Part shown: piece after piece, positions 1,090-62,956 of the stretch | How the letters are laid out: each line of letters starts with the position of its first letter | How positions within the stretch are numbered: the first letter of the stretch is position 1 | Notes under the pieces: model-generated | Seen by the model: only the letters and a program-made list of their open reading frames with translations | Database searches by the model: none | What the model was told of the DNA's origin: nothing | From: Candidatus Flexicrinis affinis | GTDB taxonomy: Bacteria; Chloroflexota; Anaerolineae; Aggregatilineales; Phototrophicaceae | DNA length: 64,000 nt | Direction: 5' to 3' | Assembly (NCBI GenBank): GCA_016716525.1 | Contig: JADJWE010000002.1 | Location: forward strand, 579,951 to 643,950 | Program-made: the position numbers and the translations under genes

Positions 1090-1115
1090 TGGATAATTCT
1101 GTTCCATTAAAGCGG

Positions 1116-1141
1116 CTGGGGGAAGCCGCAGCTCCCCCCAG
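1116..1141 (-). promoter_or_regulatory. Intercistronic GC-rich stem-loop between the SBP and permease genes
   Basis: Inverted repeat ctgggggaagc / cgca / gctccccccag (10 of 11 bp). It sits between the SBP stop (1159) and the permease start (1089). Confidence 0.45.
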
Positions 1142-1158
1142 CCCGAACGTTCAGATCG

Positions 1159-2913: not shown

Positions 2914-3043
2914 GTCTATTTGCTCCTTAGTCCAACAAAGTCGGCGCGAGGCGCGCCACGGGAATGAGTCTACCCCTGCGCCTCACCCGGCGCAAATGCC
3001 GTAGGCTAAGAATCAGGCTCGAATAGATCCATTGCGAAGCGAA

Positions 3044-4291
3044 TCACGCCGTCGGCAGCCAGATGTGCAGCAGGCCGGAGTCGGTGCCGACGGCCAGCGC
3101 GAGATGTCCGTCCGCGAGCGTAAGGGCTGCTAAATTGGTGCTGACCGTCCCGTCGACCGGCACGACCCATGCGATTTCGATGTCCTCGGGGCCGTCGCGG
3201 CGCAGGCCGGCCAGATTACGCCGTTCCTGATCGGGCAGCACCAATTCGACGCGCCCGTCTCCGTCGAAGTCTCCCGCCACCGCCATATCGAGGTTGTCGG
3301 AATACAGCACATGCGATGTGAACCCGCGCAGTTCGGCCACTACCGGAAACCCGTCGCCGTTGAGCCGGTTGAACTGGACCACCCCGCCGATGTGCGGCGT
3401 CAGCACCGACGCCAGTTCGATCACGCCGTCTTCGCTAAATGCTCCGGCCGCGAGCTGATGACGCCAGCGCCCGCCGCGACCAACCTGCGGGCCTTCCGCG
3501 ATCTGTTCGCCGGTGTCACCGGCATAGACGCGGATACGCGCGCCAGCCTCCTCGTCGGCCACCGTGGCAATGAGTTCCTCGGAACCGTTGCCATCCATGT
3601 CCGTCCACAGCGGTGTCAGGCCTTCAAACACCAGCCCGTCTTCCAGCGAGATACGGTACACCTCGGTCAACGTCTCGATATTGAATACGACCAGCGCCGT
3701 CGCCTCGACGGCATCGCCCAGCACGCCGTGGGCATAACGCGACGTCTGGCCGGCGTAGACGGCGGCACGGTCGCCACGCACGACGATTCGCGCGTCCGGT
3801 AGGGCGTCGAGCGACTCTCGCACGACCGTACCGCGCGCGGTGCGAACGACGTCACCGTTGTTGGCGACATATAGCAGCCCCTCGGGCAGTACGACCGGTA
3901 CCGACCGGACCGACGCATCGGCGGGCAGAGGTAGCAGTGCGAGGTCGCCGTCCGGGTCGATCATGCCGACCGGCGGCTGACCGGGCGCAAGCTGCCCGGC
4001 GGGATTGAGCCGGCCGTTGGCGTCGACGGCAAGCACGCGCCCGTCCTCAAGCGCCACCAGCCACGATGCGCGGCTGCGCGAGGGTGTCCCGACGACCCAC
4101 TTGGGCACGCCGTCAAGTTGAACGCTGAGGTAGACGGCATCCGGCATAGAGCCGACACCGGGGACAAATCGGCTGCCGGTGGGCTGATGATGAGGGATTG
4201 CGGCAAGCGGCATAGGTCGTTCCTCATGGGCGGCAGGCGCAATGGACGTTGTAAGAAGCAGCACTAAAGCAATTGTCCATCGCGGCATCAC
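3044..4291 (-). CDS. Secreted FG-GAP/VCBS-like repeat protein
   Basis: Signal peptide followed by repeated D-x-D-G-D/N-G motifs (DMDGNGSEELI, GDFDGDGRVELVL) characteristic of FG-GAP calcium-binding blades. Confidence 0.55.
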   Translation of the reverse strand: MMPRWTIALVLLLTTSIAPAAHEERPMPLAAIPHHQPTGSRFVPGVGSMPDAVYLSVQLDGVPKWVVGTPSRSRASWLVALEDGRVLAVDANGRLNPAGQLAPGQPPVGMIDPDGDLALLPLPADASVRSVPVVLPEGLLYVANNGDVVRTARGTVVRESLDALPDARIVVRGDRAAVYAGQTSRYAHGVLGDAVEATALVVFNIETLTEVYRISLEDGLVFEGLTPLWTDMDGNGSEELIATVADEEAGARIRVYAGDTGEQIAEGPQVGRGGRWRHQLAAGAFSEDGVIELASVLTPHIGGVVQFNRLNGDGFPVVAELRGFTSHVLYSDNLDMAVAGDFDGDGRVELVLPDQERRNLAGLRRDGPEDIEIAWVVPVDGTVSTNLAALTLADGHLALAVGTDSGLLHIWLPTA

Positions 4292-4394
4292 TCACCGGCC
4301 CAGTCGTGTCGATGCGAGAGGCCGCCGGCACGGTTGCCGACGACCGACTCAGTGTACAGGACGAATCCAGTTCGGGTCAGTGGAGAATGAGCAG

Positions 4395-6095
4395 CTACGG
4401 CTGAGTGCCAGACAGCTTTGACGCGTAGTCGGTCGCGTTCTCGGTCGACTGGAAGATCACGGGCTGCGCATCGAACACGGCATCCGGGCCCAGCCGCATC
4501 AACGCGCCGGTTCGCGTGAGTTCGTCGCGCAGCTTTTTCCCGACACCGGCAAGGATCAGCTTGCCGCCCTGATCGCGCAGCATTGAGTCGTAGCGCAGGA
4601 TGACGTTGATCCCGGTGCTGCCGAGCGACTCGGTATCGCGCAAGCGCAGAATCACGAGCGGCTTGACACTGCCTTCCGGATCGGGCAGCAGCGACTCCAG
4701 CTTGCGGAACGCCGCGAAGTACAGCGTGCCGTTGACCGAAAGCACCACGGGCGTATGGTCAGGCAGCTTAGCCGGGCTGGGCTGCTCGCTGAACCGTCCC
4801 CGCTCGTCCTGTACGAGTTGAACGACTTCGATCTGCGTGCTGGATGTCCAGATGTACAACCCGAGCGACAGCAACACGCCGCCGTAGATCGAGTACTCAA
4901 GCGGCAGCACCAGCGCGCCGGCGAAGGTTGCCAGCATCGACACGCGGCCAATCGTGGAGACGGCCCACACCAGGCGAATTGCGCGCAGGTCGATCAAGCT
5001 GAGTGCCGCGACGACGAGGTGACCGGCCAGCGCCGCCAGCGGAATCACCTCAATCACGCCAGAGAACAACAGCATCATCATAAAGATGGTGATGCCGGCG
5101 TAGACGTTCGCCATGCGGCTTTGCGCGCCGCTGCTGATGTTGACGGCCGTGCGCGAGAGCGACCCGCTGGACGGCAGCGCCTGAAACACGCTTCCGACCG
5201 CGTTTGAGACGCTGTGCGCGATGAAGTCCCGGTTGACATCCGCGCGGGGTTCCTTGCGGTCGCGCAGCTTCTCGACAAGCGCAGCGTGCTGCACACAGGC
5301 CAACAGCGCCGTGGCGAACGCCGCGCCGAGCAGCGGCTGAGCGTAACCGAGGTCAGGCAAAACGGGCAGCGGCAGTCCTGACGGAATCGGCGACTGATCG
5401 CTCACGAGCGCAACCGTCGACCAGTCGAAGATCAGCACCAGCGGCGTGACGATCGCGAAGGCGACCAGCGTCGCGATGTTCTTGAGGCGTCGCATGTGGT
5501 GGAACGTGTAGATCATCACTGTCGTGGCCGCGCCGACGACGAGCGTCGCCGGGTCAGTTTCGGCGATCCGCCCGAACAGCTCGATGACGCCGCCCAGCGC
5601 GTTGCTGCCCGAATGCACCTCGATGCCGAAGATGTGATCCAGTTGACCGAAGATGATGAGCACGCCTGCCCCGCTGATAAAGCCGACGATCACGGCATTG
5701 CTGACGAATCGTGTGAGCGCAGAGAAGCGGAACAGACCGAATACGAGTTGAAACGCGGCGACCAGCAGCGTGAACGTGAACAGCGGAACGGGCGGGTCGG
5801 GGTTGTTGAAGGTCGTTAGCGCGCCCGCCACCAACAGCATGAGCACGTTTGTCGGCGCGACGGTGACGAAACGCGAACTGCTCAACAGGCCGCCGATGAT
5901 TGTCGGGAAGATGCTGGCATAGAGACCGTAGACCGGATTGACGCCGCCCAGCAGCGCGAATCCCATCGACTGCGGCGCGCCGGCGATTGCACCGGTCAGT
6001 CCCGCAGTGAAGTCCGCACCAAAACTCGCCCGTGCAAAGCGCAGACGTTCACGAAGCATGTGCAAATAGCCCAGTTGAAAGTGCCGAGACAGCAA
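4395..6095 (-). CDS. SulP-family anion (sulfate) permease with a C-terminal STAS domain
   Basis: 566 aa with multiple TM segments. The N-terminal region is SLC26/SulP-like and the C-terminus is STAS-like. Confidence 0.85.
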   Translation of the reverse strand: MLSRHFQLGYLHMLRERLRFARASFGADFTAGLTGAIAGAPQSMGFALLGGVNPVYGLYASIFPTIIGGLLSSSRFVTVAPTNVLMLLVAGALTTFNNPDPPVPLFTFTLLVAAFQLVFGLFRFSALTRFVSNAVIVGFISGAGVLIIFGQLDHIFGIEVHSGSNALGGVIELFGRIAETDPATLVVGAATTVMIYTFHHMRRLKNIATLVAFAIVTPLVLIFDWSTVALVSDQSPIPSGLPLPVLPDLGYAQPLLGAAFATALLACVQHAALVEKLRDRKEPRADVNRDFIAHSVSNAVGSVFQALPSSGSLSRTAVNISSGAQSRMANVYAGITIFMMMLLFSGVIEVIPLAALAGHLVVAALSLIDLRAIRLVWAVSTIGRVSMLATFAGALVLPLEYSIYGGVLLSLGLYIWTSSTQIEVVQLVQDERGRFSEQPSPAKLPDHTPVVLSVNGTLYFAAFRKLESLLPDPEGSVKPLVILRLRDTESLGSTGINVILRYDSMLRDQGGKLILAGVGKKLRDELTRTGALMRLGPDAVFDAQPVIFQSTENATDYASKLSGTQP

Positions 6096-6129
6096 ACAGT
6101 GTACCGCACGCTCAGGCGGTTGGCGTTAG

Positions 6130-7200
6130 CTATGACGCATTCTTGACGTGTAGATCGAAGAACGCCGTCACGCGCTGCATGAATTCGACCCAACTGTCGC
6201 CCCAGAACGTGTGATCCTGTCCCTCATACCAGAAGAACTGCACCGCGATTCCCTCGGCGCGCATGGCGTCGTACAGCTTGGTCGACCATGCGGTCGGAAC
6301 GACGGTGTCACGGCTACCAATATGGATTTGCACTGGCACGGTAATCAGGTCGAGGTCGTGGATCGGCGACACCCGCGTGACAAACTCAGTATCGCGGGCC
6401 GCGTCCAAGTACGTCTCGTACAACGTTTCATCCACATCGGCCGGGATGACTTCGCCACGGTTGCAGCGCCGCCCTGCCCGCCGTTCGGCCAGACATCCCG
6501 GCCCCCAAAGGCCGATCAGGTCGGAGTCGTCGGCGCTGTTGGTGGCGTACAACACAGCGGCGTCGATACGCGGGTCGATCGTCAGCGCTTTGGTGGCGAT
6601 CCCGCCGCCCATGCTGTGCCCCCACATGCCGATCCGTGACGTATCGGCCTGCGGGACGGTCTCTAGCGCGCTGATCAGGTTGAGCACGTCGGCGGTGACA
6701 CCGGCGTGAAACAGGCTGACGCCCCAGTCGCTGCCGCCCCAACTGCGGTAGTCTGACGAGACAGTCAGGTAGCCGCGCGCGTTGAGATAGCCCGCCGCTT
6801 CCCACGTCTCGTAGCCCGACCAGTACTCGGCCTGACGGATGTACCCGTGATTGAGCACGATCACCGGGAACGGCCCCGTTCCCGGCGGCACCTGCATGAT
6901 GCCCGTGATCGTCAGGCCGTCGCTCGGGTAGGAGATCAGATAGCGCGTAAACGTGTCGGTCGCCATGATCGACCGCTCGATCGTGACCGTGCCGCCGGGG
7001 TACTCGCGTGCGCGCAGCGATTCGAGCGTATACAGTTCGAGAATCGTGTAGTCGAGCACCGCGGCGCCGTCGCCCTCGGGCGGGGTCGACGCGTCTTGAG
7101 CGGTTGTCGGGGACAGAGCGAAAACGATCAGGATCAGTAGTGCGAAACGCGAGGAAACCTGTAGGACGTGGGACATCGAAGCATGCTCACCAGTAAACAC
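6130..7200 (-). CDS. Secreted alpha/beta-hydrolase (S9 peptidase / dienelactone-hydrolase-like)
   Basis: Signal peptide from the internal Met (MSHVLQVSSRFALLILIVFALS..AQ). A GHSMGG nucleophile-elbow motif is present. The true start may be the second Met, at about 7176. Confidence 0.65.
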   Translation of the reverse strand: MFTGEHASMSHVLQVSSRFALLILIVFALSPTTAQDASTPPEGDGAAVLDYTILELYTLESLRAREYPGGTVTIERSIMATDTFTRYLISYPSDGLTITGIMQVPPGTGPFPVIVLNHGYIRQAEYWSGYETWEAAGYLNARGYLTVSSDYRSWGGSDWGVSLFHAGVTADVLNLISALETVPQADTSRIGMWGHSMGGGIATKALTIDPRIDAAVLYATNSADDSDLIGLWGPGCLAERRAGRRCNRGEVIPADVDETLYETYLDAARDTEFVTRVSPIHDLDLITVPVQIHIGSRDTVVPTAWSTKLYDAMRAEGIAVQFFWYEGQDHTFWGDSWVEFMQRVTAFFDLHVKNAS

Positions 7201-7263
7201 GCAAACGATAGCAGGCGTGCGGCGCGCTGTCAGCCCACGACCACCCGACGCTTGCGCGAACGG

Positions 7264-8010
<747 letters not shown>

Positions 8011-8024
8011 TTCGAGACCGCCTG

Positions 8025-8825
8025 CTAGTTCTTGATCAATTTGAGTGCGCGGCTGCCGAGGTAGGCTTCGATCACCCGCGCATCCTGCTGCACCTCGGAT
8101 GGCTTGCCCTCGCTGATCTTGCGTCCGTAGTCGAGCACCGTGACCTTGTCGCTGATCGTCATGACGACGTGCATGTCATGTTCGATCAGCAGGATCGTCA
8201 ACTTGCGTTCATCGCGCAGGCGGCGGATGAACGCGGTCATGTCCTTGGTCTCGTTCGGGTTCATGCCGGCTGTCGGCTCGTCCAGCAGCAGCAGCTTCGG
8301 CCGCGTTGCCAGCGCGCGCGCGATCTCGAGGCGGCGCTGCAAGCCGTAAGGCAAATTGCGCGATTCGATGTCTTCAAAACCCTTCAGGCCGACATAGGCG
8401 AGCAATTCTTGGCCGTGCTGGATAGCCTCGTCTTCCTCTGTTCGGGTCGAACGCAGCTTGAGCAGATCGCCCCACCACGGCGAGCGCAGCCAGTGGTGCA
8501 TGCCGATCAGCACGTTTTCGAGCGCGCTCAGGCGGCCGAACAGTCTGATGGTCTGGAACGTGCGGCCGATCCCATATCGCGTCAGCCGGTGCGGCGAAAG
8601 GCCGCCGATGTCATGCCCGTCAAAGCGCACCGTGCCGGTCGACGGCTTGTAGTAGCCGGTGACGATGTTGAAGAAGGTCGTCTTGCCGGCACCATTCGGC
8701 CCGATGATGCTGTTGATCGCACCGGATTCTACGGTGTAGTCGAGTGTGTCGACCGCCGTCAGACCGCCGAACTTCTTGCTGACCCCCTTCGCCTCAAGCA
8801 GCGTCGCCATGGATTGCCTCCTCAA
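8025..8825 (-). CDS. livG: Branched-chain amino acid ABC transporter ATP-binding protein (LivG-type)
   Basis: Walker A (GPNGAGKTT), a signature motif and LLLLDEPTAGM. It overlaps the upstream permease gene by a few codons; the likely start is MATLLEAK at about 8810. Confidence 0.85.
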   Translation of the reverse strand: MRRQSMATLLEAKGVSKKFGGLTAVDTLDYTVESGAINSIIGPNGAGKTTFFNIVTGYYKPSTGTVRFDGHDIGGLSPHRLTRYGIGRTFQTIRLFGRLSALENVLIGMHHWLRSPWWGDLLKLRSTRTEEDEAIQHGQELLAYVGLKGFEDIESRNLPYGLQRRLEIARALATRPKLLLLDEPTAGMNPNETKDMTAFIRRLRDERKLTILLIEHDMHVVMTISDKVTVLDYGRKISEGKPSEVQQDARVIEAYLGSRALKLIKN

Positions 8826-23798: not shown

Positions 23799-24438
23799 CT
23801 ACCCGATCAGCACGACATGTACCTCGACGGGGCCGTGCGCACCCAGTATGAGTTCCTGTGCAATGTCGGCCGTGCGGCTTCCGCCGGTGATAAACACGAC
23901 GTTGGCGCTCTCGCGGAAGTGCGTCAATCCCGAGGCAGAGACCTGTTCGAACCACGCCTCGACATCCGGCAATATCTGATCGGCGCGAACCACCGCGATA
24001 TGCACCGGCGGCAGCAGTGATGCAAAGCGTGGTTTTCCCGGCCCGCTCGATACGACGAGGCTTCCCGTTCCGGCAAGTGCTGCCTCGACACCAGTCAGCC
24101 CGACGCGGGCCGACGGATCGCGCACGTCGGCGGGCGTAATCCCGCGCGCGTTGAGCGCCTGGCCAACCCTCCAGCGAAATCTGATCCGGATCCCGCGATG
24201 ACCTGTTTGTCATCCCCGATCACTCGAGCACCCGCCCAAGCGCCGCCTTGTCGTCAGCGCACGGCCACAGCGTCACGCCGACGCGTGCTGCCGCCGCCGA
24301 AAACGCGTCGCGGAGCGCATCCGGCGATGTGTCGGCCATCGGCACGACCCGCACCGGATCGGGGGTGGCAGGGATGTTCAGCGCCGGATTTGTTACCGCG
24401 CGCAGGCGTTTCAGGATGGATTCTCTGCTCGACATCAT
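23799..24438 (-). pseudogene. lutC: Lactate-utilisation protein C (LutC/YkgG family), two frame changes between 24125 and 24220 (as sequenced)
   Basis: The N-terminal 72 aa ('SRESILKRLRA...LGRVLE') and the C-terminal 108 aa ('...LVVSSGPGKPRF...VVRADQI...VVLIG') are LutC-like but lie in different frames. A third frame carries 'VIGDDKQVIAGSGSDF' in between. The breaks lie in gggg/ggg runs. Confidence 0.6.
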
Positions 24439-24444
24439 TGGATA

Positions 24445-24592
24445 CCCTCACCCCTAGCCCCTCTCCCTCAGGGAGAGGGGGATTCGACCGATCGGTCTGT
24501 CGCCATTGTCGGCGGGCGACCCGGCGGGTCGCCCCTACAGACTTGCGCGCCGCCGGTTCCTGACAACTGACACCTGATTCCTGACGTCTTCC
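24445..24592 (-). repeat. Composite intergenic repeat, copy 1 (modules M1+M2+M3)
   Basis: Read on the minus strand after the lutB stop: M1 'gtcaggaatcaggtgtcagttgtcagg'. Then M2 'tgtaggggcgacccgccgggtcgccc' (9-bp hairpin). Then M3 'cccctctccc tca gggagagggg' (perfect 10-bp hairpin), followed by 'ctaggggtgaggg'. These modules recur at six or more other sites. Confidence 0.7.
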
Positions 24593-32894: not shown

Positions 32895-32975
32895 TAGCCC
32901 GGGCGACCCGGCAGGTCACCCCTACACATCAGCGATAGGCGTGACTGACAACTGTCTACTGACTCCTGAACCTGC
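32895..32975 (-). repeat. Composite intergenic repeat, copy 2 (modules M1+M2), inserted between nfeD and the flotillin gene
   Basis: Minus-strand reading after the nfeD stop: 'gttcaggagtcagtagacagttgtcagtc' (M1), then 'tgtaggggtgacctgccgggtcgcccgggc' (M2). Confidence 0.65.
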
Positions 32976-38015: not shown

Positions 38016-38864
38016 ATGACCCTACGCGTCCGGATCGCGGTTCTGTGCGTGCTGATCTGTGCCATCGCCTTACCGGCAGTAGCGCAAGACCCGCCCATAC
38101 TGTCTCCCCAGTCTAAACTGACCCGCGAGCAGCGGGAACGAAAGCTAGAAATCATTCGAGAGGTCCGTCAGGCCTATTTCGCGCAGTTTCGGACCCGAAC
38201 CGCAGCGGACTACAACCTCGTTTATATCGTTGGCCCGGCCCTGCTTGAGGACACAGCCTCATACGTTGCGGTCAACATACTGCAGGACAATATCCCCAAT
38301 CTCGTCGTCGTAGCGTCAGGGAGCGACTTCGAGAGGTTGGCGGAGAACGATTGGACACGCTTCGACTCGATTGTCATACACCGCTCGGCGTTGGAGTGGC
38401 TGGACGCCGAATCTATTCAACGCGCCTACGCGCGGGGTATCGCTGTAACGACGTTGGGAATGCGTTTCGAGGAGCACGCTGCGCTGACTGGCGATCGGTG
38501 TTCGCTGCCTGCGACGCGAGGAGACCCGCTGCTTAACGATCCCCGAAATCCTCCCAAGCCGGGGGATCTCGGTGTCATTGTTTCGTGGCACAGACTTCGG
38601 GCCAATTCCTTATTGGCTGCACAACTCGCGTCACTGAATCGTGATGTTCTCTCGTCCTGCAAAGACGAACAGATAGAACTCGACGGCGTGCGTGTAGGCG
38701 TTTCATCAGCGTCTTGGCTGCACGAAGTGCGTTCTGCCGGCGATCTGGAAGCACTAGTTGTATTGGTGACAAACGGCGCGGTTACTCTCGAGGCATTTCA
38801 GGGCCGAGCTGAACTTGAAAGCGAGATCAACCTTCGACTGGCTCAAGAGGGATTACTCGAATGA
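38016..38864 (+). CDS. Hypothetical secreted protein in a low-G+C islet
   Basis: Signal peptide MTLRVRIAVLCVLICAIALPAVAQ. I recognise no family. Codon usage is visibly less GC3-rich than in neighbouring genes. Confidence 0.5.
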   Translation: MTLRVRIAVLCVLICAIALPAVAQDPPILSPQSKLTREQRERKLEIIREVRQAYFAQFRTRTAADYNLVYIVGPALLEDTASYVAVNILQDNIPNLVVVASGSDFERLAENDWTRFDSIVIHRSALEWLDAESIQRAYARGIAVTTLGMRFEEHAALTGDRCSLPATRGDPLLNDPRNPPKPGDLGVIVSWHRLRANSLLAAQLASLNRDVLSSCKDEQIELDGVRVGVSSASWLHEVRSAGDLEALVVLVTNGAVTLEAFQGRAELESEINLRLAQEGLLE

Positions 38865-39421
38865 CAAACTGGATCTGGGCTCTCCGCTCTCTAGTGCGAC
38901 TTGCTGTTCTGATTTGCCTAGCCGGGAGTGTATTCGCAGGAAGCTGGTTCACCGATCTCGACTTCTGTTTTGGGCCAAACAATTCTACGGTACTGTGCGT
39001 ACCCAATGCAGGGTTTGTACCAATGCACACTCGAGCGGGCTACTATGCGCCGCCCATTGATTACGTTCCGATTTCCTCAACTTGGACTGATTATCTCAGC
39101 GTGCCTGAGATCAGGGCAAGAGCACGGACATGGGACCTGTATCACTGTCTTCCGGACTTCACGTTGAAAGGCGACGACGTGGATACGAGCTATGTTGACG
39201 TAGAAGAGGCCACATTGCTTCCGGGCGTTGACTTGATTCTGCAAGACCATGATTACTTCACTTCGAAGCACAGAATCGTGTTTAATCCGACGATCTACAA
39301 ACTGAAGGCCTATAGTAGCGCGAACGGCATATATAGCTCCAAAGCGTGGTGGGATGGTTCCGCGCACAAGCCTGAGCCAACATGCTCCCTGACGTTTCCA
39401 CCACCACCTGACGACGATTGA
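38861..39421 (+). CDS. Hypothetical secreted protein in a low-G+C islet, Cys-containing with a Pro/Asp tail
   Basis: ATGA-coupled to the previous gene. The N-terminus has signal-peptide character, and the protein ends with PPPPDDD. Confidence 0.5.
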   Translation: MTNWIWALRSLVRLAVLICLAGSVFAGSWFTDLDFCFGPNNSTVLCVPNAGFVPMHTRAGYYAPPIDYVPISSTWTDYLSVPEIRARARTWDLYHCLPDFTLKGDDVDTSYVDVEEATLLPGVDLILQDHDYFTSKHRIVFNPTIYKLKAYSSANGIYSSKAWWDGSAHKPEPTCSLTFPPPPDDD

Positions 39422-53912: not shown

Positions 53913-54020
53913 ACCGGATTACTGTTAGGACCGGCGCGGAAGCCTGTCAGGTTCCGGTTAGCGACTGGCTGTCGTTCTATACTCGTGCGGATGTGTCCGG
54001 CCCTACCGGGAGGCCCGCCG

Positions 54021-55782
54021 ATGTTCCGCGCCCTGACCCTGATTGTCTGTATCGCACTGCTGGCAGCGACCGGCGCTGCTGCACAGGATAGCCCGTACCT
54101 GACCGGCACCTTGACGACCGTGGACGTCGGCGGCGTCGAGCGTCAGTACGTGCTGTTCGCGCCGGATGACCTGCCCGCCGATGCGCCCCTTGTCGTCGTA
54201 TTGCACGGCCGATTCCAGTCGGCTCGGTCGATCGAGGCGTTCACGCACCTAAATGCCGCCGCGCAAGAAAACGGCTGGATCGTCGCGTACCCGAACGCCG
54301 TCAACGGCAGTTGGGAGGACGGCGGGCGCGAGTCCGGCCTGCCGCGCACTGGCGATCCGGTCGATGACGTCGGGTTCTTCGACGCGGTCGTCGCCGACGT
54401 GACCGCTACCCACAGCACCGGTTCGATCAACGCGGCAGCCTTCGACACCGGCGGCACCCTGCTCCAGCGCATCCTGTGCGAAGCTGAGACCGAACTCGAC
54501 ACGGCGATGCTGGTCGCGTCGGTGGTGTGGTCGCACACGCTGGAACGCTGCGCCGAGGCGCGGATCGATACGCGCATGCTGCTCGTGTTCGGCGCGCTCG
54601 ACTCGATTTACGAGCCGCTGGGCACGACCTTCGACACCCTGCCCCGCCCGGACGGCACGCCCAACCGCCGCGGCGGCTTTGACGAGACGGCCAAGTTCTG
54701 GGCGTCACGCGCGGGCTGCGACCCGGACTCGACGCAGACCGGTCAGTCGGTCGTGTTCGAAGGCTGCCCGATCGACGGCCAAGTGACGGCGATGCTGCTG
54801 CCGAGCGCCGGGCACGAATGGCCGCGCTCCGGCGACTACGCGATCACCGGCGGGTTCAACCCACTGCACGACGGCGTAACCTTGCTCGGTGAACTGCTGG
54901 CGGGCCGCCTGCCGGTCGATCCGGTCGATCCGCCCGACGTGCTCGTGCCGCCGCGCACATTCATCGCCTACGTGCCGACAGCCTACACCGCCGACGCGCC
55001 GCTGCCCGTGGTCGTCGCGCTGCACGGCCGGCCCGACACCGGTGCCGGATTCGCCGCCATCACCGCCATGACGCCGATTGCCGAAGAAGAAGGCTTCATC
55101 GCCGTGTTCCCCGACGGCGTCGACAACCAGTGGAACTACCTCGAAGGCGTGACGGGCGAAACGCCGTACAACTATGTGAGCGACGTGCGCTTCCTCGACC
55201 GGCTGATCGACGACCTCGCCGTCGACCTCAACATCGACGCGGCACGCGTGTACCTGACCGGCTTCAGCAACGGCGGATTCATGACCTACCGGATGGCCTG
55301 CGAGCCAACCGTCAACCGCTTTGCCGCGTTCGCCGTGGCCGGCGCGCTGATGTACCCCGAGTTTCAACCGCCGTGCCTTGTCAGTCCGCCGCGCCCGATG
55401 CTGATCGAGCACGGCACCGAGGACATCAGCATTTCGTGGGACGGCATCACGCACATGCCCGCCCCCCGGCCACCTCGCCGTGACGCTTAACGTGCTGCAA
55501 TCGGTGAGCTTCTGGGCCTCGCGCAACGGGTGCGATCCGACCCTGACCGAGCGATTCGAGTATCCGCGGGCGGACGAGCTGACGGCCGTCATCCGCTTCG
55601 ACTTCGTGGAGTGCGCGGGCGCGCCGGTGACGTTCTACGCCGTGATGGGTGGTGGGCACGGTTGGCCGGGCGTGGATGTCGTGCCGGAGCGCATCGCCGG
55701 GAACAACACGCACGACATCCACCTCACCCACGAAATCTGGGACTTCTTCAAGGATCAGCGCTTGGTGGAGAGTGGTCAGTAG
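54021..55782 (+). pseudogene. Secreted tandem-domain esterase (PHB-depolymerase/LpqC-like alpha/beta-hydrolase, duplicated), with a frame break at about 55465 (as sequenced)
   Basis: Signal peptide (MFRALTLIVCIALLAATGAAAQ) and two homologous halves ('VVVLHGRFQS...' and 'VVVALHGRPDT...GFSNGGFMTY'). The last ~100 aa are in the 55480..55782 frame. The break is in a C6 run ('gcccgCCCCCCggcc'). Confidence 0.6.
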
Positions 55783-56216
55783 GCAGGAGTCAGGTGTAAG
55801 TACCCGACCTCACCCCGCGTCGCTGCGCCCTCTCGAACGAACCTCACCCCAAACCCCTTTCCGCCTCGGAGAGGGGCTTTCAAATCCGGCGTGTGTTTCT
55901 CCCCTCTCCTCGGGAGAGGGGCCGGGGGTGAGGTCTGTTCTGGCCGGGGGTGTCGTTACGCTTGGCGCACCGACCGCCTACTCGTAGGGACGCGATATAT
56001 CGCGTCCGGTGGCGGCGGGCCGATCGCGTTCGCGGACGCCATGTATGGCGTCCCTACCACACCGTGCTTATTCCGCTGCTGAGATCACTCCGCCACGCTG
56101 CGCTCCGCTATCCCTCGCCCTGAGGGGGACGGGCGTTCGTGTCCGGCGCGAGTCGTTCTCCCCTCTCCAGTTGGAGAGAGGTCGGGGGTGAGGTCTGCTT
56201 TGGGCGACGTACTTAC
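55783..56216 (+). repeat. Composite intergenic repeat, copy 3: a 430-bp MITE-like array of hairpin modules filling a convergent intergenic region
   Basis: Starts 1 nt after the esterase stop with M1 'gcaggagtcaggtgtaagtacc'. Contains three M3 hairpins (55854..55876, 55901..55937, 56160..56197), the last two each followed by 'cgggggtgaggtctg'. A 73-nt nested palindrome spans 55985..56057 (ggacgcgata|tatcgcgtcc and ggacgccat-gt-atggcgtcc, framed by gtaggg...ccctac). Imperfect terminal inverted repeats share GTAAGTAC and GACCTCACCCC (55796..55816 vs 56184..56216). Confidence 0.7.
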
Positions 56217-56221
56217 CATTT

Positions 56222-57499
56222 CTACGGCGTCGACGTCGCTGTAGCCACCATGCACGGCCAGGTCCCATACGTCGGACAGTCCTGAACGAGTGGCTCGCCC
56301 GGGGGATCCTCGGCCCAACTGTACCCATGTCCCGGGTACGCAAGGTTGAAAAACGAAATGGCGTCATTGCTACCGGCCAGCCGATCCACATAGAACGCAA
56401 GACCCAATTCCGGGTACGCGATCACGATAAGATCTGGAGTCGCCGCTTTCGCGGTGTCATGTATCGTTGCGACTGGCGGTGAACCGAATACTTCAACGAC
56501 GACGTCTACGGTTGTATCGAGGCGGCCATTCAATTGGTCGACCATGCCTGACACGATGTGTACGTCGATCGCTGAATCTGAGAATAGGAGTGGCAAGTCA
56601 GGGGCGTACCACTGAATCTGACCAGGCAGAACATAGTACTGGATACTCGCGCTTACGAGAGAATCGACTAACTCCTGCTCGGTCGTGACATTCGGCTGGA
56701 TGCCGAGAAAACAGTTTCGCTGACAGTCCGGCCCGCTGAACAGGTTCAGCAGCGCCTGCCCTTCGGTTGAGAGCGACTGTTCGTCCATGTCGGCAGATGT
56801 AGAAACGGCGGTCGGCGTCGCCGTCGGCGCGATACATGGGGCCACATCGTATGTTGCGCACTCTTGGGTCACTGGTGTGCCGGGGGGATGACTTGGCATA
56901 CCGACTCGGTTCTCAGGCTCAGTCAGAAACAAATAACTAGCTCTTTGGGTGTTCTGTGTTGCGTCTACAAAAAACAGTAGGCCCAAGTCTGGATACCCAA
57001 CTAAGTACATGGGGAATTGATACGTTACGACCTCTGGCGCACCGAAAACCTGCAGGATTGCGCTCACGCGGACACCTATCGGAGCGGCAACTTGAATCAC
57101 GGTGCGTTGATCATCTTCTCCGACGGTAATAGTAAATCCGAATGGATCGACTCCATCGTTGACCCCCGCGATCAGCTCAGGTTCCCAGTAAATCACGCCA
57201 TACTCAAAGTGGTATGCTGTGTTGCTCTGTTCGAGGGATGACACAATCTCCGTCGCGGTAGTAACCCCGGGCTCGAGTCCCATATAGCACAGTGGCGAAC
57301 ATTCGCCTGCGAATAGACTGTTGAGGATTTTCACTTCAGATTGCGAATCGAAAGCCGATTGCCCGCCGCCGCCAGTGGGTGTTGGCGTCGTCACGGGCGT
57401 GGATGGCACGGTCGGCTGGGCTTTTGACAGGCCGAGCAGCACAATGCCGAACAAGGTAACTAACAGGCATCTAGACAAGAGGTTCATTGAACATGTCAC
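56222..57499 (-). CDS. Hypothetical secreted protein with an internal tandem duplication, in a low-G+C islet
   Basis: Signal peptide and a Thr/Pro linker. Two ~170-aa repeats ('LNSLFAGECSPLCYMGLEPGVTTATEIVSSLEQ...' and 'LLNLFSGPDCQRNCFLGIQPNVTTEQELVDSLVSAS...'), each with conserved Cys pairs. I recognise no family. Confidence 0.5.
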   Translation of the reverse strand: MTCSMNLLSRCLLVTLFGIVLLGLSKAQPTVPSTPVTTPTPTGGGGQSAFDSQSEVKILNSLFAGECSPLCYMGLEPGVTTATEIVSSLEQSNTAYHFEYGVIYWEPELIAGVNDGVDPFGFTITVGEDDQRTVIQVAAPIGVRVSAILQVFGAPEVVTYQFPMYLVGYPDLGLLFFVDATQNTQRASYLFLTEPENRVGMPSHPPGTPVTQECATYDVAPCIAPTATPTAVSTSADMDEQSLSTEGQALLNLFSGPDCQRNCFLGIQPNVTTEQELVDSLVSASIQYYVLPGQIQWYAPDLPLLFSDSAIDVHIVSGMVDQLNGRLDTTVDVVVEVFGSPPVATIHDTAKAATPDLIVIAYPELGLAFYVDRLAGSNDAISFFNLAYPGHGYSWAEDPPGEPLVQDCPTYGTWPCMVATATSTP

Positions 57500-57681
57500 C
57501 GATCCAATCCGACAACAGCCCGTTCAATGGACGCTGGCGTGGAGATGATGCGGGTCAATCACCCGAAGCGTAACGCCGGATAACCATACCCGGCCAGTAC
57601 CGTTGGCATGGCGTCGGGATGCCGGTAGTCAGGAGTTGCCGCGCGTGGTCTGTGTCGCAATAACCCCTTCCGTCCGTCGCC

Positions 57682-58868
57682 TCACGCCGGCGCGCCGCGG
57701 AACCGGCCCGCCCTTGACGCCAGCGCGATCGCCGCGACCGCCAAGACCATCAGCAGCGTATACGCGCTCTGCATGCCGAACGCGTCGGACAGGCCGCCGA
57801 AGACCTGTACCGTGCTGATCACGGACAGCGACGCGATCATCCCGAAGCGCGCGCTGGCCCGGTTCGCCGCCGGCCCCGCCACCTGCATCCCGCTCGAGAC
57901 GCTCAACGGGCCGAGGTTGCCAACTCCCAGCCCCATCAGGAACAATCCGGCGATGTTCAGCGCGGGGTGTGTGCCCAGCCAGTACAGCGGAAACGTCATC
58001 AGCACCCATACGAAGGCCAGCAGCAGCACGCGCGAGTCGGGCATGACATCCAGCAAGCCGCCCGATGATGCGGCCGAGCGATCGCCACCGCGAACACGCG
58101 CGCTCATCACCGACGCCGACGTGCTCCGGGTCGAGCTTCACGACCGTCGAGAAATACGTCGCGCCCAAGCCGGAGATGAGGTTTTCGATGCCGATGGCGA
58201 GAAACGCGAGGACCGCAAAGAACCAGAATGCGGCCGGAAGCGGCACGACTCGTGCGCGGCGCGCCGTCGCCGACGTTTCGGCCGGCGCTGTCGCCGGCGC
58301 CGGGATCGCCAACCCGGCGAACAGCATCCGGTACAGCCCGACGGCAGCCAGCGGAATGAGCGGAATGGCTTGCCAGCCCAACGGCGAGCGCGCGATCATC
58401 CCCGCCAAAATCGGCCCGGCGATCATCGGCAGGCCGGCGATGATGTTGGCCTCGGCATACGCTTGGCCGCATGTGGGCCGGCAGCGACCGATATGGCCGT
58501 TGGCGACCATGAAGACCGAGCCGATCGCACAACCGAACACGAACATCGACGCGATTCGTCACCGGCAGCGATCCGCCGAACGCCACGCCCAAAAGGCCGA
58601 TCCCGACCATCACCGCCGCGACCCACACCATCCGGTCGCTGCCCACGCGCGCGACGATTCTATCCGCGACCAGGCTGACGATGATGATGCCGACCGACGA
58701 GACCGTGAAGTGATAGCTGATCTCGGTGAACGTCAGGTTCAGTTTCGCGCCGAGGAACGGCATAGTCGGCCCGATGAGTGAGATCCGGAGGCCAAAGAAC
58801 GCAAGAAAATGCGTAGCTGAACCATGTTGTCGCGTCCGGACGAAGGCGGCAGCGGGTTCGTTAACCAT
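57682..58868 (-). pseudogene. MFS transporter with at least two frame breaks (as sequenced)
   Basis: Three consecutive frames (58868..~58560, ~58546..~58100, ~58100..57682) each carry contiguous MFS-like TM sequence. The rest of each track ORF is Arg/Ala-rich noise. Confidence 0.65.
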
Positions 58869-58939
58869 TCAGGGACATCCTTCACGAACGCGATGGGGTC
58901 ATTTCGCGACATCAAGCGGCAATCGCTATAGCCTAGCCA

Positions 58940-59000
58940 GACGAAGGGGCGACCGCACGGCCGCCCCCGTAAAACCTACCCCTCCTCGGTGGAGGAAGTA
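58940..59000 (-). repeat. Degenerate relative of the composite intergenic repeat (M2-like + M3-like)
   Basis: 'ggggcgaccgcacggccgcccc' is followed by '..cctacccctcctcggtggaggaag'. It lies between the SBP stop (59083) and the MFS start (58868). Confidence 0.35.
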
Positions 59001-59082
59001 TCACACTTTCCTCTGTGTCCTGCGCGCTTGTGTGGTTTAGCCTGCTCCCACAGCACGCGGCAGCACACGACACCCGTGCGGT

Positions 59083-59989
59083 TTATTCGCCGCCCGGCGT
59101 GATCTCAACATCCATCGGCTCCCACTCTTCGCCGGTGACGTCGACCATGTCATCCATCGCCAGCGACTCGAGCGCCGCCTCGACCAGATCGGTGCGGAAC
59201 GCGCCTTCGCTCGGCTCTTCGCTGATGACCGAGCCGTCGATGGCGACCGCGACGGTCTGCGCCCACAGGTCTTCGTCCAGCATGCCAATGCCATCCGGCG
59301 ACGGCCAGATCAGGCGGTTGATCTCGTTGAGCTGCCAGCGCATGTGGCCTTCACCGAGCGTCGGGCCGTTGTCCAGCACGATGTCGACGCACTCGTCGAA
59401 GTTGTCACGGCAGAAGATCCAGCCCTTGATCGAGGCGCGGATGAACTTGATCGCGATATCTTCGTTGCCTTCCTCGGCAAGGAACGACTCGGTGGTGAAG
59501 ATGATCCTGCAGCATGGCCCGTGCCGACGTCGTTGGGCGCGCAGCGCGGCAAACAGCTCGTGCTCGTTGCCGAAGCCCCACGTGCCGACGCGCTTGCCCG
59601 CCATGTCCGCTATCGACGTAATGCCGGCGTCAACGAACGACACTTCCAATGTGCCTGAGCGCTGGAAGATCTGGGCGACGTTGACCAGATCGGCGCCAGC
59701 CTCGCGGCTCTCGAGCACCTTCGGCACCCACGCGATGCCGAATTCGGCCGCACCCGATGCGACGACCTGCTGCGGCACGATTTCAACGGCGCCTTCGAGG
59801 ATCGTGACGTCGAGTCCCTTCTTCTTCATAGAAGCCCTGAGCCAACGCCGCATAATAGCCGGCGAACTGCGACTGGGCGACCCACTGCAGCTGCAGGCGA
59901 ACGGGCACGAGGTCTTGCGCGCCGGCGGTACCGCCCACGAGCAAAGCAACCAACATAACAACTGCGAGCACTGCACTAAACTTACGCAT
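59083..59989 (-). pseudogene. ABC transporter substrate-binding protein, NMT1/THI5 (SsuA/TauA-like) family, with a frame break at about 59820 (as sequenced)
   Basis: The signal peptide and first ~55 aa ('MRKFSAVLAVVMLVALLVGGTAGAQDLVPVRLQLQWVAQSQFAGYYAALAQGFYEEEG') are in the 59783..60154 frame. The remainder ('LDVTILEGAVEIV...FIRASIKGW...') is in the 59083..60051 frame. The break is at 'gaaGGGactcg'. A GGAG RBS precedes the start. Confidence 0.65.
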
Positions 59990-60174
59990 AGAACTCCCCC
60001 TGGAAAGAGTTGGCCTTGCAGGAAACACGAATCGCGCCTCCTCAACGCCATAATCTATCGAATCTGGTGACAAGTGCCAAAATCTCGTGTGCACAAGAAT
60101 TGCCGCGGCCCATTGTCCAATCCTGACAATCGAGGCTAAACTGAGGCGGCACACGCGCGAATAAGGGGTACGCC

Positions 60175-61327: not shown

Positions 61328-61339
61328 GTGGAAGTCGCC

Positions 61340-61440
61340 AGCTGTCCGGAGTCAGGTGTCAGTAACCGCGGACTAGCGTAGGTAATCGACGTCGTAGCGC
61401 AGGGTCGCGGAAGCCCACTTCGGCCATCCCCTACCCGGAC
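61340..61440 (+). repeat. Composite intergenic repeat, copy 4 (M1 + divergent tail)
   Basis: M1 'ccggagtcaggtgtcagtaacc' begins 13 nt after the upstream stop (61327). The tail contains '..cgtaggtaatcgacgtcgtagcg..' and 'cccctacc'. Confidence 0.55.
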
Positions 61441-62847: not shown

Positions 62848-62956
62848 GGAGTTTCCAGTTTTCAGACATCAGTTGTCAGTCTTTTATTGCCGCAACGTGG
62901 ATAGCCAATCGTCACTCGATCGCCCTTGGAAACTGACATCTGACACCTGATCACTT
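62848..62956 (-). repeat. Composite intergenic repeat, copy 5 (M1 plus an inverted partial M1)
   Basis: Minus-strand reading 4 nt after the ATPase stop gives 'gtgatcaggtgtcagatgtcagtttcc' ... then 'aagactgacaactgatgtctgaaaactggaaactcc'. The two ends are imperfect inverted repeats of each other. Confidence 0.55.

Follow-up and report, generated by a model that had tools for sequence, protein, structure and literature searches.

A nested-palindrome spacer between convergent genes of an uncultured Chloroflexi bacterium, probably a mosaic of three widespread short-repeat families

Two convergent genes of an uncultured Chloroflexi bacterium, one for an esterase and one for a secreted-looking protein, are separated by a spacer with nested palindromes and apparent terminal inverted repeats, and the question raised by this locus is whether such a structure represents one mobile element, an RNA gene or a cluster of smaller repeats. 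The window, that is the whole stretch of 64,000 nucleotides that was analysed, is MAG-derived and contains frameshifts at homopolymers, so that the lengths of the G/C runs in the motifs are possibly off by one; within the source genome, copies of the modules and of the composite were sought in these 64 kb. All the features listed in the initial annotation were present in the sequence and their coordinates were verified. The spacer is indeed filled with repeats, as had been proposed, although its length is 439 bp (55783-56221) and not 430 bp. It is probably a BIME-like mosaic, in which three independent and widespread short-repeat families are piled up at the 3' flanks of two convergent genes, and not one mobile element.

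The genes of this region are the following:

53985-55782, plus strand: upstream gene, two-domain esterase of the PHB-depolymerase family (homologues of 585-595 aa).
56222-57499, minus strand: downstream convergent gene, 425-aa secreted-looking orphan protein with an internal two-domain duplication.
57682-58868, minus strand: split MFS-like gene, inside a lineage-variable segment.
59083-60051: NMT1-like gene, which adjoins the esterase spacer in the closest relative.

A frameshift at a C-run near 55461-55467 splits the esterase reading frame into two ORFs (53985-55490 and 55480-55782); one homologue, P0001, is 100% identical (NCBI MAG, Chloroflexi bacterium, IPM16_11915). The 425-aa protein did not match any Pfam family and has 8 homologues only. 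Its gene was correctly recognized from the outset as a low-G+C neighbour (G+C 0.53-0.58 vs about 0.65-0.68), and its GC3 is 0.61 vs about 0.8. A retron, a CRISPR, an integron attC site and a group II intron remnant were also considered and rejected, since the flanking genes were examined and reverse transcriptase, cas, integrase and matching repeats were not found among them.

The RNA folding of the whole spacer yielded -226.5 kcal/mol on the plus strand and -219.1 kcal/mol on the minus strand (z = -6.27 and -5.64, respectively), and 0 of 100 shuffles folded equally well. [quoted passage not shown] Hairpins rich in G+C are common in a genome with ~65% G+C, and this is the point in favour of a spacer made of chance low-complexity G+C-rich sequence. 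However, the shuffle controls for folding and for hairpin, heptamer and GTAAGTAC counts rule that explanation out, and exact matches to the modules occur in unrelated organisms; its probability is regarded as practically nil.

The first family is represented by a pair of palindromic units:

55984-56007, plus strand: GTAG-tagged REP unit 1, GTAGGGACGCGATATATCGCGTCC; the same unit is found on other contigs.
56008-56033, no strand: spacer of the REP dimer, 26 nt.
56034-56057, minus strand: GTAG-tagged REP unit 2, GTAGGGACGCCATACATGGCGTCC; with an inner stem that departs from that of unit 1 by a compensatory change.

A palindrome of 73 nt, formed by two perfect palindromes of 20 nt within a GTAGGG...CCCTAC frame, had been described here. 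The frame and the two palindromes were confirmed, but the structure extends over 74 nt (55984-56057) and the second palindrome consists of a stem of 9 bp and a loop of 2 nt. The two units constitute a head-to-head heterodimer with GTAG outside, which folds with -49.6 kcal/mol on the plus strand (z = -5.7) and -40.3 kcal/mol on the minus strand (z = -2.95), and both show the unpaired GTAG-type tetranucleotide at one end that is characteristic of the palindromic REP units of 20-40 bp. The REP core, GTAGGGACGC-N8-GCGTCC, was detected in 45 other stretches. The inner stem had been left free in the search pattern, and in the 39 distinct units it was 81% paired vs 44% in shuffles; all three of its pairs vary on both sides, and the covariation score was 0.90 vs 0.23, a value reached by 0 of 500 shuffles. 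Head-to-head REP dimers and REP/TM neighbours were found in unrelated contigs (L170, L186, L047 and L075), the dimers specifically in L170 and L186. The 64-kb window contains 4 clear REP units, all of them extragenic, at 3' positions downstream of a gene, and with GTAG on the 5' side when read in the direction of the closest gene upstream. When the window and ~200 loci were searched by tblastn with the RayT of E. coli as query, a test of low sensitivity, nothing below E = 0.77 was retrieved. GTAG-tagged REPs and their head-to-head dimers were defined by Di Nocera et al. 2013, with previous reports in Chloroflexi and Cyanobacteria, dimer spacers usually of 20-100 bp, and HH or TT arrangements with 1-100 bp (PMC3733652), while the BIMEs of E. 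coli and RAYT were treated by Ton-Hoang et al. 2012 (PMC3333891). On the basis of its sequence, 55984-56057 is classified as a REPIN/BIME-like head-to-head heterodimer of GTAG-tagged REP hairpins.

The second family comprises the hairpins on both sides of the REP dimer:

55806-55834, minus strand: truncated triplex-motif copy with the third-strand complement GACCTCACCCC (55806-55816) and CCCTCTC (55828-55834), purine arm missing.
55835-55940, plus strand: inverted triplex doublet formed by the units 55841-55876 and 55901-55934, one long hairpin.
55841-55876, minus strand: triplex-motif unit, on the minus strand CCCCTCTCC-gaggc-GGAAAGGGG-ttt-GGGGTGAGGT; one mismatched triplet, type-A-like second loop.
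55901-55934, plus strand: triplex-motif unit of type B, CCCCTCTCC-tcg-GGAGAGGGG-ccg-GGGGTGAGGT; all triads allowed; with flanks, 55889-55946.
56160-56194, plus strand: triplex-motif unit, CCCCTCTCC-agtt-GGAGAGAGG-tcg-GGGGTGAGGT; one mismatched triplet; with flanks, 56148-56206.

Three hairpins, named M3, had been reported in the spacer, two of them with a tail; they are present as CCCCTCTCC/GGAGAGGGG-type hairpins at 55855-55875, 55902-55920 and 56161-56180, and the tail, CGGGGGTGAGGTCTG, is found on two copies. This hairpin with its CGGGGGTGAGGTCTG tail corresponds to the G/C-rich potential intrastrand-triplex motif (BoxC/PIT/TM) that was characterized as TM_ECO by Holder et al. 2015 and is known from E. 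coli and >260 other genomes (PMC4666352). The two direct CGGGGGTGAGGTCTG-tailed copies have ~58 nt in common with ~85% identity, and the spacer contains 3.5 copies of the motif, including the inverted pair. The truncated copy at 55806-55834 is additional to the three M3 hairpins.

Arms of ~9 nt, one of pyrimidines and the other of complementary purines, with a loop of 3-6 nt between them, were identified in 55841-55876, 55901-55934 and 56160-56194, as well as in a further unit of the window (24447-24480, minus strand). The third segment is G/T-rich and mirrors the purine arm; when only the triads of a class II purine motif (G*G:C, A*A:T and T*A:T) were accepted, 55901-55932 and 24447-24480 had 0 mismatches, and 55841-55876 and 56160-56194 had one mismatched triplet each (read by eye), like the 'mm' types of E. 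coli; the hairpin mismatch of 56160-56194 is a G-U pair on the minus strand. The second loop is TTA in type A and CCG in type B; the loops found here are CCG in the 55901 unit, TCG in the 56160 unit (cf. E. coli nos. 12 and 20) and TTT/CTA, which is A-like. The doublet thus pairs an A-like unit with a B unit and folds with -62.1 kcal/mol (z = -4.6); five inverted A+B pairs are described for E. coli, and the formation of a triplex in vitro (CD/NMR) was demonstrated for E. coli sequences only (PMC4666352). Triplex units were also detected in unrelated metagenome contigs with 41-68% G+C, in >120 IMG/VR stretches and on plasmids of cyanobacteria, Sulfitobacter and Cupriavidus, with a 92-nt match to the doublet on a Leptolyngbya plasmid, and exact units were present in contigs with portal, terminase, tape-measure and major-head genes. 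The motif is intergenic, multi-copy and conserved across distant taxa, and the M3 units of the spacer are assigned, by their arms and loops, as members of the BoxC/PIT/TM family.

[quoted passage not shown]

55775-55802, plus strand: heptamer tract (M1), GTCAGTA GGCAGGA GTCAGGT GTAAGTA.
56209-56216, minus strand: right copy of GTAAGTAC, 5 nt past the stop of the 425-aa gene, inverted twin of 55796-55803 and conserved in the related contig L035.

The M1 tract had been placed immediately after the esterase stop. It does follow the stop codon, but it also overlaps it, as the first heptamer unit supplies the TAG (55780-55782); the last unit lies within the left GTAAGTAC (55796-55803). The tracts are tandem repeats with a period of 7 nt, dispersed, intergenic and short (3-4 units). 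Five of the six tracts of the window begin 0-11 nt past a stop codon and in sense, vs just 2 of 11 at other loci. Dispersed heptanucleotide repeats of cyanobacteria, the STRR, were reportedly described by Mazel et al. in 1990. A GTCAGNN-type heptamer is also the 44-copy repeat csR1.1 of Nostoc PCC 7120 (ttgtcagttgtcagttgtca), in which the dispersed intergenic repeats include both the heptamer and the REP core (PMC2408588). The GTAAGTAC pair does not fit any known family, and an extra assumption is therefore needed for it, either an inverted duplication or homogenisation by quasi-palindrome template switching. The twin GTAAGTAC ends and the heptamers 0-11 nt past stop codons are the two points that the mosaic leaves unexplained.

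Each of the three families occurs separately elsewhere, in the window, in unrelated bacteria, on plasmids and in phage contigs, and other clusters of the window carry different subsets of the modules. The co-occurrence of REPs and triplex motifs across loci is modest (3.0 vs 0.8 TM per 100 kb); a general REP-triplex link was rejected on this ground, and both are treated as independent families. The identity of the modules, their mutual independence and the covariation of the REP stem were demonstrated. The membership of the spacer in a repeat family, as initially proposed, is borne out in the form of a cluster of members of dispersed families, and its palindromes are conserved between copies. 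From the stop codon inward, each arm consists of a heptamer unit or tract ending in GTAAGTAC, followed by triplex motifs and by a GTAG-first REP, and the REPs of the two arms join head-to-head at the centre. Two such stacks placed back to back account for the nested-palindrome symmetry and for the apparent terminal inverted repeats.

The comparison with related genomes involves one further feature:

55783-58940, no strand: lineage-variable segment of ~3.1 kb, missing from a CFX4-like relative, which holds the mosaic, the 425-aa gene and the split MFS-like gene.

The closest relative (L016/L017, CFX4-like), with an esterase of 85% aa identity, is devoid of these ~3.1 kb and has 140 bp of other sequence in their place, its esterase stop being followed by an unrelated 280-bp spacer and the NMT1-like gene, and in a third lineage (L036) a CHAT-domain gene occupies the position. 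In L035 the right 187 bp of the spacer (56035-56221) are 98% identical and lie 3' of the orthologous 425-aa gene, and the contig terminates within the REP. Identity is ~92% across the 847-bp aligned block that includes this right arm, the flanks have diverged by 8-13%, and the locus as a whole is a mosaic of blocks with 47%, 87%, 92% and 99% identity; the L035 copy of the 56160-56194 triplex unit differs at two middle-arm positions. A search with the C-terminal fragment of the esterase, seeking the left arm in a close relative, yielded one match only, with 62% identity. Two independent contigs end in or beside these repeats. These alignments showed that the position of the spacer is a lineage-variable site and that the right arm was passed on together with the 425-aa gene in a related lineage. 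The 98% identity was not attributed to selection on the spacer alone, because the block of high identity also covers the end of the coding sequence, to which recent recombination is a better fit, and because the locus is such a mosaic of blocks.

The insertion junction that had been suspected here is supported insofar as a lineage-variable site lies beside an atypical gene, but the gap comprises 3.1 kb and not the element alone. The esterase 3' region of the relative lacks the repeats together with the rest of the 3.1 kb, L035 has the right arm, and a target-site duplication was not recognized.

MITEs, such as the Correia and Nezha elements, are intergenic sequences of ~100-450 bp with inverted ends and strong folding. 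A single non-autonomous MITE-like element of 421 bp (55796-56216), integrated between the genes for the esterase and the 425-aa protein, would agree with the confinement of GTAAGTAC and its complement to the two ends of the spacer within the 64 kb, with the 11-nt perfect inverted match that adjoins these ends, with the minimum-energy fold, which pairs both ends, and with the lack of the sequence in the CFX4-like relative. Nevertheless, the inverted ends that had been noticed (GTAAGTAC..GACCTCACCCC vs 56185-56216), although real, are not collinear, since 2 nt separate the 8-mer from the 11-mer on one side and 13 nt on the other, and the 11-mer is nothing but the third strand in two triplex motifs of opposite orientation. 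The composite was not encountered a second time in the 64-kb window, the metagenome contigs or the plasmid and phage collections: a scan of the metagenome for the ends (GTAAGTAC-N0-15-GACCTCACCCC) gave 17 matches, not above chance for an 8-mer beside a common 11-mer, all of them chance matches or plain triplex units without a composite, and the whole spacer, when compared by blastn with the sequences of phages and plasmids, matched single triplex units or the doublet only. The flanks (...AGTCAGGT / CATTTCTA...) have no direct repeat that could be a target-site duplication, the units of the interior are scattered independently over many phyla, the absence in the relative concerns 3.1 kb and not just the element, and in L035 the right arm is fixed 5 nt past the 425-aa stop beside the diverged flanks. 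The absence of a second composite and of a target-site duplication in these searches, together with the independent dispersal of the modules, weighs against the MITE proposed in the initial annotation, which is considered very unlikely.

A functional structured RNA, either a small RNA or one derived from a 3'-UTR, with a role beyond the protection of 3' ends, would be consistent with the very strong folding of both strands, with mismatches that become G-U pairs on the transcribed strand of the nearest gene (55855-55875, plus; 56161-56180, minus), with the REP dimer being 9 kcal/mol more stable as plus-strand RNA, and with the identity of the right arm in L035, higher than that of the inclusive block. 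However, the strong folding is fully explained by the generic repeat units of which the structure is wholly composed, the G-U argument comes from 2-3 cases, and the L035 block extends into coding sequence, a better fit to recent recombination. Rfam did not give any match at the gathering score in the whole window, and only weak miRNA-like chance matches on the spacer at E <= 10; neither promoter-like nor intrinsic-terminator-like sites, nor U-tract terminators, were detected in a scan of the spacer. An RNA gene at this locus is held to be improbable.

A role as a selected barrier to transcription in both directions and a stabiliser of mRNA 3' ends, built from recruited repeats, is somewhat more plausible, if still doubtful. 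Such a barrier would add a substitute for terminators in a phylum with few canonical intrinsic ones. The spacer is convergent, its hairpins reach -50 to -62 kcal/mol, the REPs of the window (4 of 4 clear units) and the post-stop heptamer tracts (5 of 6) are in the sense of the upstream gene, and in bacteria at large REPs are located preferentially in convergent and unidirectional spacers, at short distance from 3' ends, with a presumed action at the RNA level (PMC3733652). On the other hand, the scan did not reveal U-tract terminators, and for the PIT/TM of E. coli neither promoter nor terminator activity nor a stable triplex in vivo was observed (PMC4666352). The orthologous spacer of the relative is entirely different, which argues that no specific structure is required, and 3.5 triplex motifs and a REP dimer exceed the functional need.

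For the mosaic of independent families, the following origin is proposed. The REP units would spread as single-stranded DNA hairpins by means of a RAYT-type Y1 transposase, and the heptamer tracts may grow by slippage. The resulting stacks would provide both convergent mRNAs with very stable 3' hairpins, of -50 to -62 kcal/mol in the folding model, which might protect the mRNA ends and reduce transcription into the gene opposite. By analogy with the triplex loci of E. coli, the stacks could also behave as non-B DNA and create a site prone to rearrangement.

An unlikely variant of this origin is that the families, instead of accumulating at random, were deposited as an ordered, transcription-oriented stack of the 3' flank (stop, heptamers 0-11 nt on, a REP with GTAG first and optionally a triplex motif) by a process linked to translational or transcriptional termination, for example a transposase or template switching directed at DNA or RNA just beyond stop codons, or selection of the arrangement by an RNA-binding factor. 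Since exact units are present in contigs with phage genes, the units would in this case travel between phyla on phages.

Under the preferred mosaic, the main value of these results is one of clean-up, as the nested palindrome is explained by repeats known from E. coli and cyanobacteria; because these families were described years ago, an annotation of the spacer as a novel MITE or RNA gene is not warranted. In addition, the triplex motif of the E. coli type and GTAG REPs coexist and are stacked in Anaerolineae-like Chloroflexi. The stack is located between conserved genes, at a site that varies in three ways, in agreement with the link between triplex motifs and local instability, as the triplex-motif loci of E. 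coli are associated with locally variable regions of the genome (PMC4666352). Assemblies break at these repeats. The heptamers past stop codons, the REPs in sense and the units on phage contigs, as side observations, bear on the unexplained origin of these motifs and on their spread across phyla.

In comparison with known systems, the spacer resembles MITEs in size, inverted ends, intergenic location and strong folding, but differs in having neither a target-site duplication nor another full-length copy among the sequences searched, in ends that are not collinear and in an interior of separately dispersed units. The mosaic intergenic regions of Neisseria, where different repeat families are interleaved (PMC3733652), are alike in this interleaving. 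The REP units share with known REPs the unpaired GTAG head, the G+C-rich stem of 9-10 bp, the short loop and the alternative complementary stem residues among units, and 55984-56057 shares with known dimers the HH arrangement, the convergent spacer and the folding as two hairpins or one long structure; the stem is GGGACGC/GCGTCCC, and 24 REP families are numbered in PMC3733652. Compared with a strict E. coli BIME, Y/Z units and an IHF linker are absent from this spacer. The tracts of the window and csR1.1 of Nostoc are alike in their 7-nt unit (GTCAGNN and GTCAGTT, respectively) and in being intergenic and dispersed, and in both cases the heptamers coexist with a REP core of the AGACGCGATTCATCGCGTCT type in the same genome; the window tracts differ from the cyanobacterial heptamers in their 3-4 units per tract and in their position past stop codons, in sense, in 5 of 6 cases. 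TM_ECO (CCCTCTCCC-loop-GGGAGAGGG-(TTA/CCG/TCG)-GGGTGAGGG) and the units of the spacer (CCCCTCTCC-loop-GGAGAGGGG-(TTT/CCG/TCG)-GGGGTGAGG) are near-identical, as was checked in the E. coli sequence itself, and have in common the 5' TTCT flank, the intergenic location, one-mismatch variants, inverted A-like/B pairs and occurrence in variable regions. The host is here an Anaerolineae-type Chloroflexi, a phylum absent from PMC4666352, with the triplex assigned from the sequence; units are present on phage contigs and plasmids, where the BLAST searches of PMC4666352 did not find them, and, unlike TM_ECO, 3.5 triplex copies are stacked with REPs and heptamers in one spacer.

The spacer between the esterase gene and the converging 425-aa gene (55783-56221, 439 bp) was wholly occupied by the structure described here, and all the features listed for it in the initial annotation were found in the sequence, minor corrections apart. 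Chance is a very unlikely source: the fold had z = -6.3 on the plus strand and -5.6 on the minus strand, with 0 shuffles as good, and the hairpin pattern was present twice in the window where 0.00 copies were expected. The flanking genes are:

53985-55490 and 55480-55782, plus strand: two-domain esterase of the PHB-depolymerase family, ORF split by a frameshift
56222-57499, minus strand: secreted-looking orphan gene of 425 aa (IPM16_11925)

The esterase was 100% identical to the NCBI protein IPM16_11915 (uncultured Chloroflexi MAG, 692-kb contig); in the species collection, Anaerolineae bacterium CFX4 came closest, with 83% amino-acid identity. The frameshift sits at a C-run (55461-55467, region 55455-55495), homologues having 585-595 aa, and the MFS-like gene at 57682-58868 (minus strand) is also split, near 58100-58115. 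Both splits are likely MAG assembly errors, so the precise lengths of G and C runs within the motifs need caution. The 425-aa protein, with only 8 homologues, is built from an internally duplicated ~190-aa domain that ends in a Cys-rich, Thr/Pro-rich linker, and its gene has a GC3 of 0.61. A second stretch of atypical composition was observed at 38016-39420, where ORF 38016-38864 has a GC3 of 0.61 and low G+C runs on for ~570 bp beyond it, probably encoding another small secreted protein.

The spacer is concluded to be a BIME-like accumulation of independent repeats. The repeat named M1 in the initial annotation is a tract of GTCAGNN heptamers, and 6 such tracts of 3-4 units each were found in the window versus 0.12 in shuffles:

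24558-24585, minus strand: heptamer tract
32943-32970, minus strand: heptamer tract
55775-55802, plus strand: heptamer tract
61337-61364, plus strand: heptamer tract
62861-62881, plus strand: heptamer tract
62931-62951, minus strand: heptamer tract

Five of the six start 0-11 nt past the upstream gene's stop codon and run in its sense, where random positions would give 5%; the remaining tract is antisense, directly upstream of a start codon and able to pair with the neighbouring tract. In loci of other organisms this post-stop rule was not upheld (2 of 11 tracts).

The M3 hairpin with its tail is the G/C-rich intrastrand triplex motif (TM) of Holder et al. 2015 (PMC4666352), first named BoxC and then PIT, known from 23 copies in E. 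coli K-12 and from >260 genomes overall. A purpose-written triad-rule scan of candidate triplex units gave zero mismatches for 55901-55932 and 24447-24480; further spacer units are:

55806-55834: truncated copy
55841-55876, minus strand: unit in which a single triplet is mismatched, as in E. coli "mm" variants
56160-56194, plus strand: unit in which a single triplet is mismatched, again as in E. coli "mm" variants

Units 55841 and 55901 are paired in inverted orientation, an A-like with a B unit (-62 kcal/mol as RNA fold), and a Leptolyngbya plasmid matches the inverted pair across 92 nt. The copy at 24437-24480 (minus strand), upstream of a minus-strand start codon, has the end ...GGGGTGAGGGTATCCAATG, which places a G-rich third strand in Shine-Dalgarno position, ~9 nt before the ATG.

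The 74-nt palindrome comprises a pair of hairpins, each headed by an outward-facing GTAG, and is an "HH" (head-to-head) heterodimer of GTAG-tagged REPs in the terms of Di Nocera et al. 2013 (PMC3733652). The REP core GTAGGGACGC-N8-GCGTCC was present in 45 further stretches. Among 39 distinct units, the inner three stem pairs, left free in the search pattern, were 81% paired versus 44% in shuffles, every one of them varying on both sides; GAT..ATC and CAT..ATG, the versions in the window, fall within the ordinary variation of this series. In all four clear REPs of the window, GTAG lies on the 5' side when read in the upstream gene's direction.

Elsewhere in the window the modules are combined as follows:

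24440-24590: heptamers, REP and TM
32898-32970: heptamers and REP
61337-61434: heptamer tract, then a weaker GTAG-ended sequence
62861-62951: inverted pair of heptamer tracts

Unrelated contigs carry other combinations (REP-REP-TM in L047, REP-TM-TM in L075, HH dimers in L170 and L186), and the families co-occur just modestly. The composite as a whole was not found again in the window, in the metagenome scan for its ends or in phage or plasmid collections, and a target-site duplication was absent at the spacer. With its modules also occurring apart, the proposed MITE was not borne out. GTAAGTAC has just two copies in 64 kb (55796-55803 and 56209-56216), inverted, one per spacer end and both a few nt past a stop codon; no known repeat family matched these paired ends as an explanation, and they may derive from inverted duplication or template-switch homogenisation. 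The spacer is two-fold symmetrical because each converging gene has the same kind of 3' stack, in the order heptamer unit, triplex motif, GTAG-first REP.

In a 1.69-kb contig of another sample (L035), the 425-aa gene has an ortholog, behind which lie the right 187 bp of the spacer, altered by 4 substitutions; the contig ends within the REP. The right arm is thus a stable 3' flank of the 425-aa gene, kept in a lineage with 8-13% diverged neighbouring DNA. The locus itself is a patchwork of blocks ~47%, 87%, 92% and 99% identical, which indicates recombination. Within the gene (L035 298-1503) the N-terminal domain has ~47% DNA identity, the C-terminal domain and 3' flank being 92-99% identical, which points to a domain that was swapped or is diverging rapidly.

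An insertion junction beside the low-G+C gene had also been suggested. In a CFX4-like relative (L016/L017, esterase 85% amino-acid identity) an unrelated spacer of 280 bp comes after the esterase stop; it opens with a lone GGGGTGAGGG and is alignable only in its last ~140 bp (window 58940-59082), the next gene being the NMT1-like gene (59083-60051 in the window). Hence ~3.1 kb of the window is absent from the relative, comprising the mosaic, the 425-aa gene and the split MFS-like gene of normal composition. In a third lineage (L036, 57% identity) a CHAT-domain gene sits between the esterase and an NMT1 gene, so the site is variable in three lineages. The junction idea is partly supported; the difference may be an insertion or a deletion alike. 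The variable site fits the rearrangement excess reported at triplex-motif loci (Holder et al. 2015, PMC4666352), which does not prove causation.

Two hairpins (GGGxCGxCCGC..GGCCGCCCC and CCCCTxC..GxAGAGGAA) in the NMT1-like gene's 3' flank are kept, with several substitutions, in the window (58940-59000) and L016 (10170-10230), and may be a conserved terminator-like pair. Two independent assemblies break within or beside the region, the CFX4 contig inside the esterase gene (L001 10341) and L035 in the REP (1690), which fits repeats fragmenting short-read assemblies.

As RNA, the TM doublet and REP dimer are predicted to give both genes highly stable 3'-UTR hairpins. Three hairpin mismatches become G-U pairs on the strand that transcription from the nearest gene would yield, and the plus-strand fold of the REP dimer is stronger by 9 kcal/mol; in this tiny sample, both hint at transcription. 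The proposal of a novel structured RNA was not supported. That the stack is a transcription terminator for the converging genes is rather doubtful, since the spacer has no U-tract and PIT elements did not act as terminators in E. coli (PMC4666352).

RAYT Y1 transposases are thought to mobilise REPs in the form of single-stranded hairpins; a low-sensitivity tblastn search with E. coli RayT detected no RAYT gene in the window and ~200 loci (no hit below E = 0.77). Heptamer tracts could plausibly lengthen or shorten by slippage. Exact TM and GTAG-REP units were also observed on contigs that bear genuine structural genes of phages:

L039 (IMGVR_UViG_3300048592_001291), 1-7283: neck, minor head, portal and large terminase genes with 5 TM units, 2 of them within long ORFs
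L173 (IMGVR_UViG_3300031998_001371), 850-8150: tape-measure and major-head genes with 4 REP units

On L173, two REP units flank a long tandem array (acgtgggacacgtgggacaaa...) at 1000-1180. IMG/VR contained >120 stretches with the TM pattern and 45 with the REP core. Holder et al. 2015 (PMC4666352) reported that they found no TM on phages or plasmids. Phages are possible carriers of both motifs from one phylum to another.

The repeats are new members of known families, in a new host. Both the heptamer (ttgtcagttgtcagttgtca, 44 copies) and the REP core (agacgcgattcatcgcgtct, 34 copies) recur among the dispersed intergenic repeats tabulated for Nostoc PCC 7120 (PMC2408588). GTAG-tagged REPs are known from Chloroflexi and Cyanobacteria, their dimers typically having 20-100-bp spacers and sitting in convergent or unidirectional spacers near 3' ends (Di Nocera et al. 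2013, PMC3733652). The E. coli triplex unit, read directly from sequence, is CCCTCTCCC-tgt-GGGAGAGGG-ccg-GGGTGAGGG and that of the window CCCCTCTCC-tcg-GGAGAGGGG-ccg-GGGGTGAGG; the two agree in their arms and loop types, down to the TTCT flank on the 5' side, and the inverted A-like + B arrangement occurs five times in E. coli (PMC4666352).
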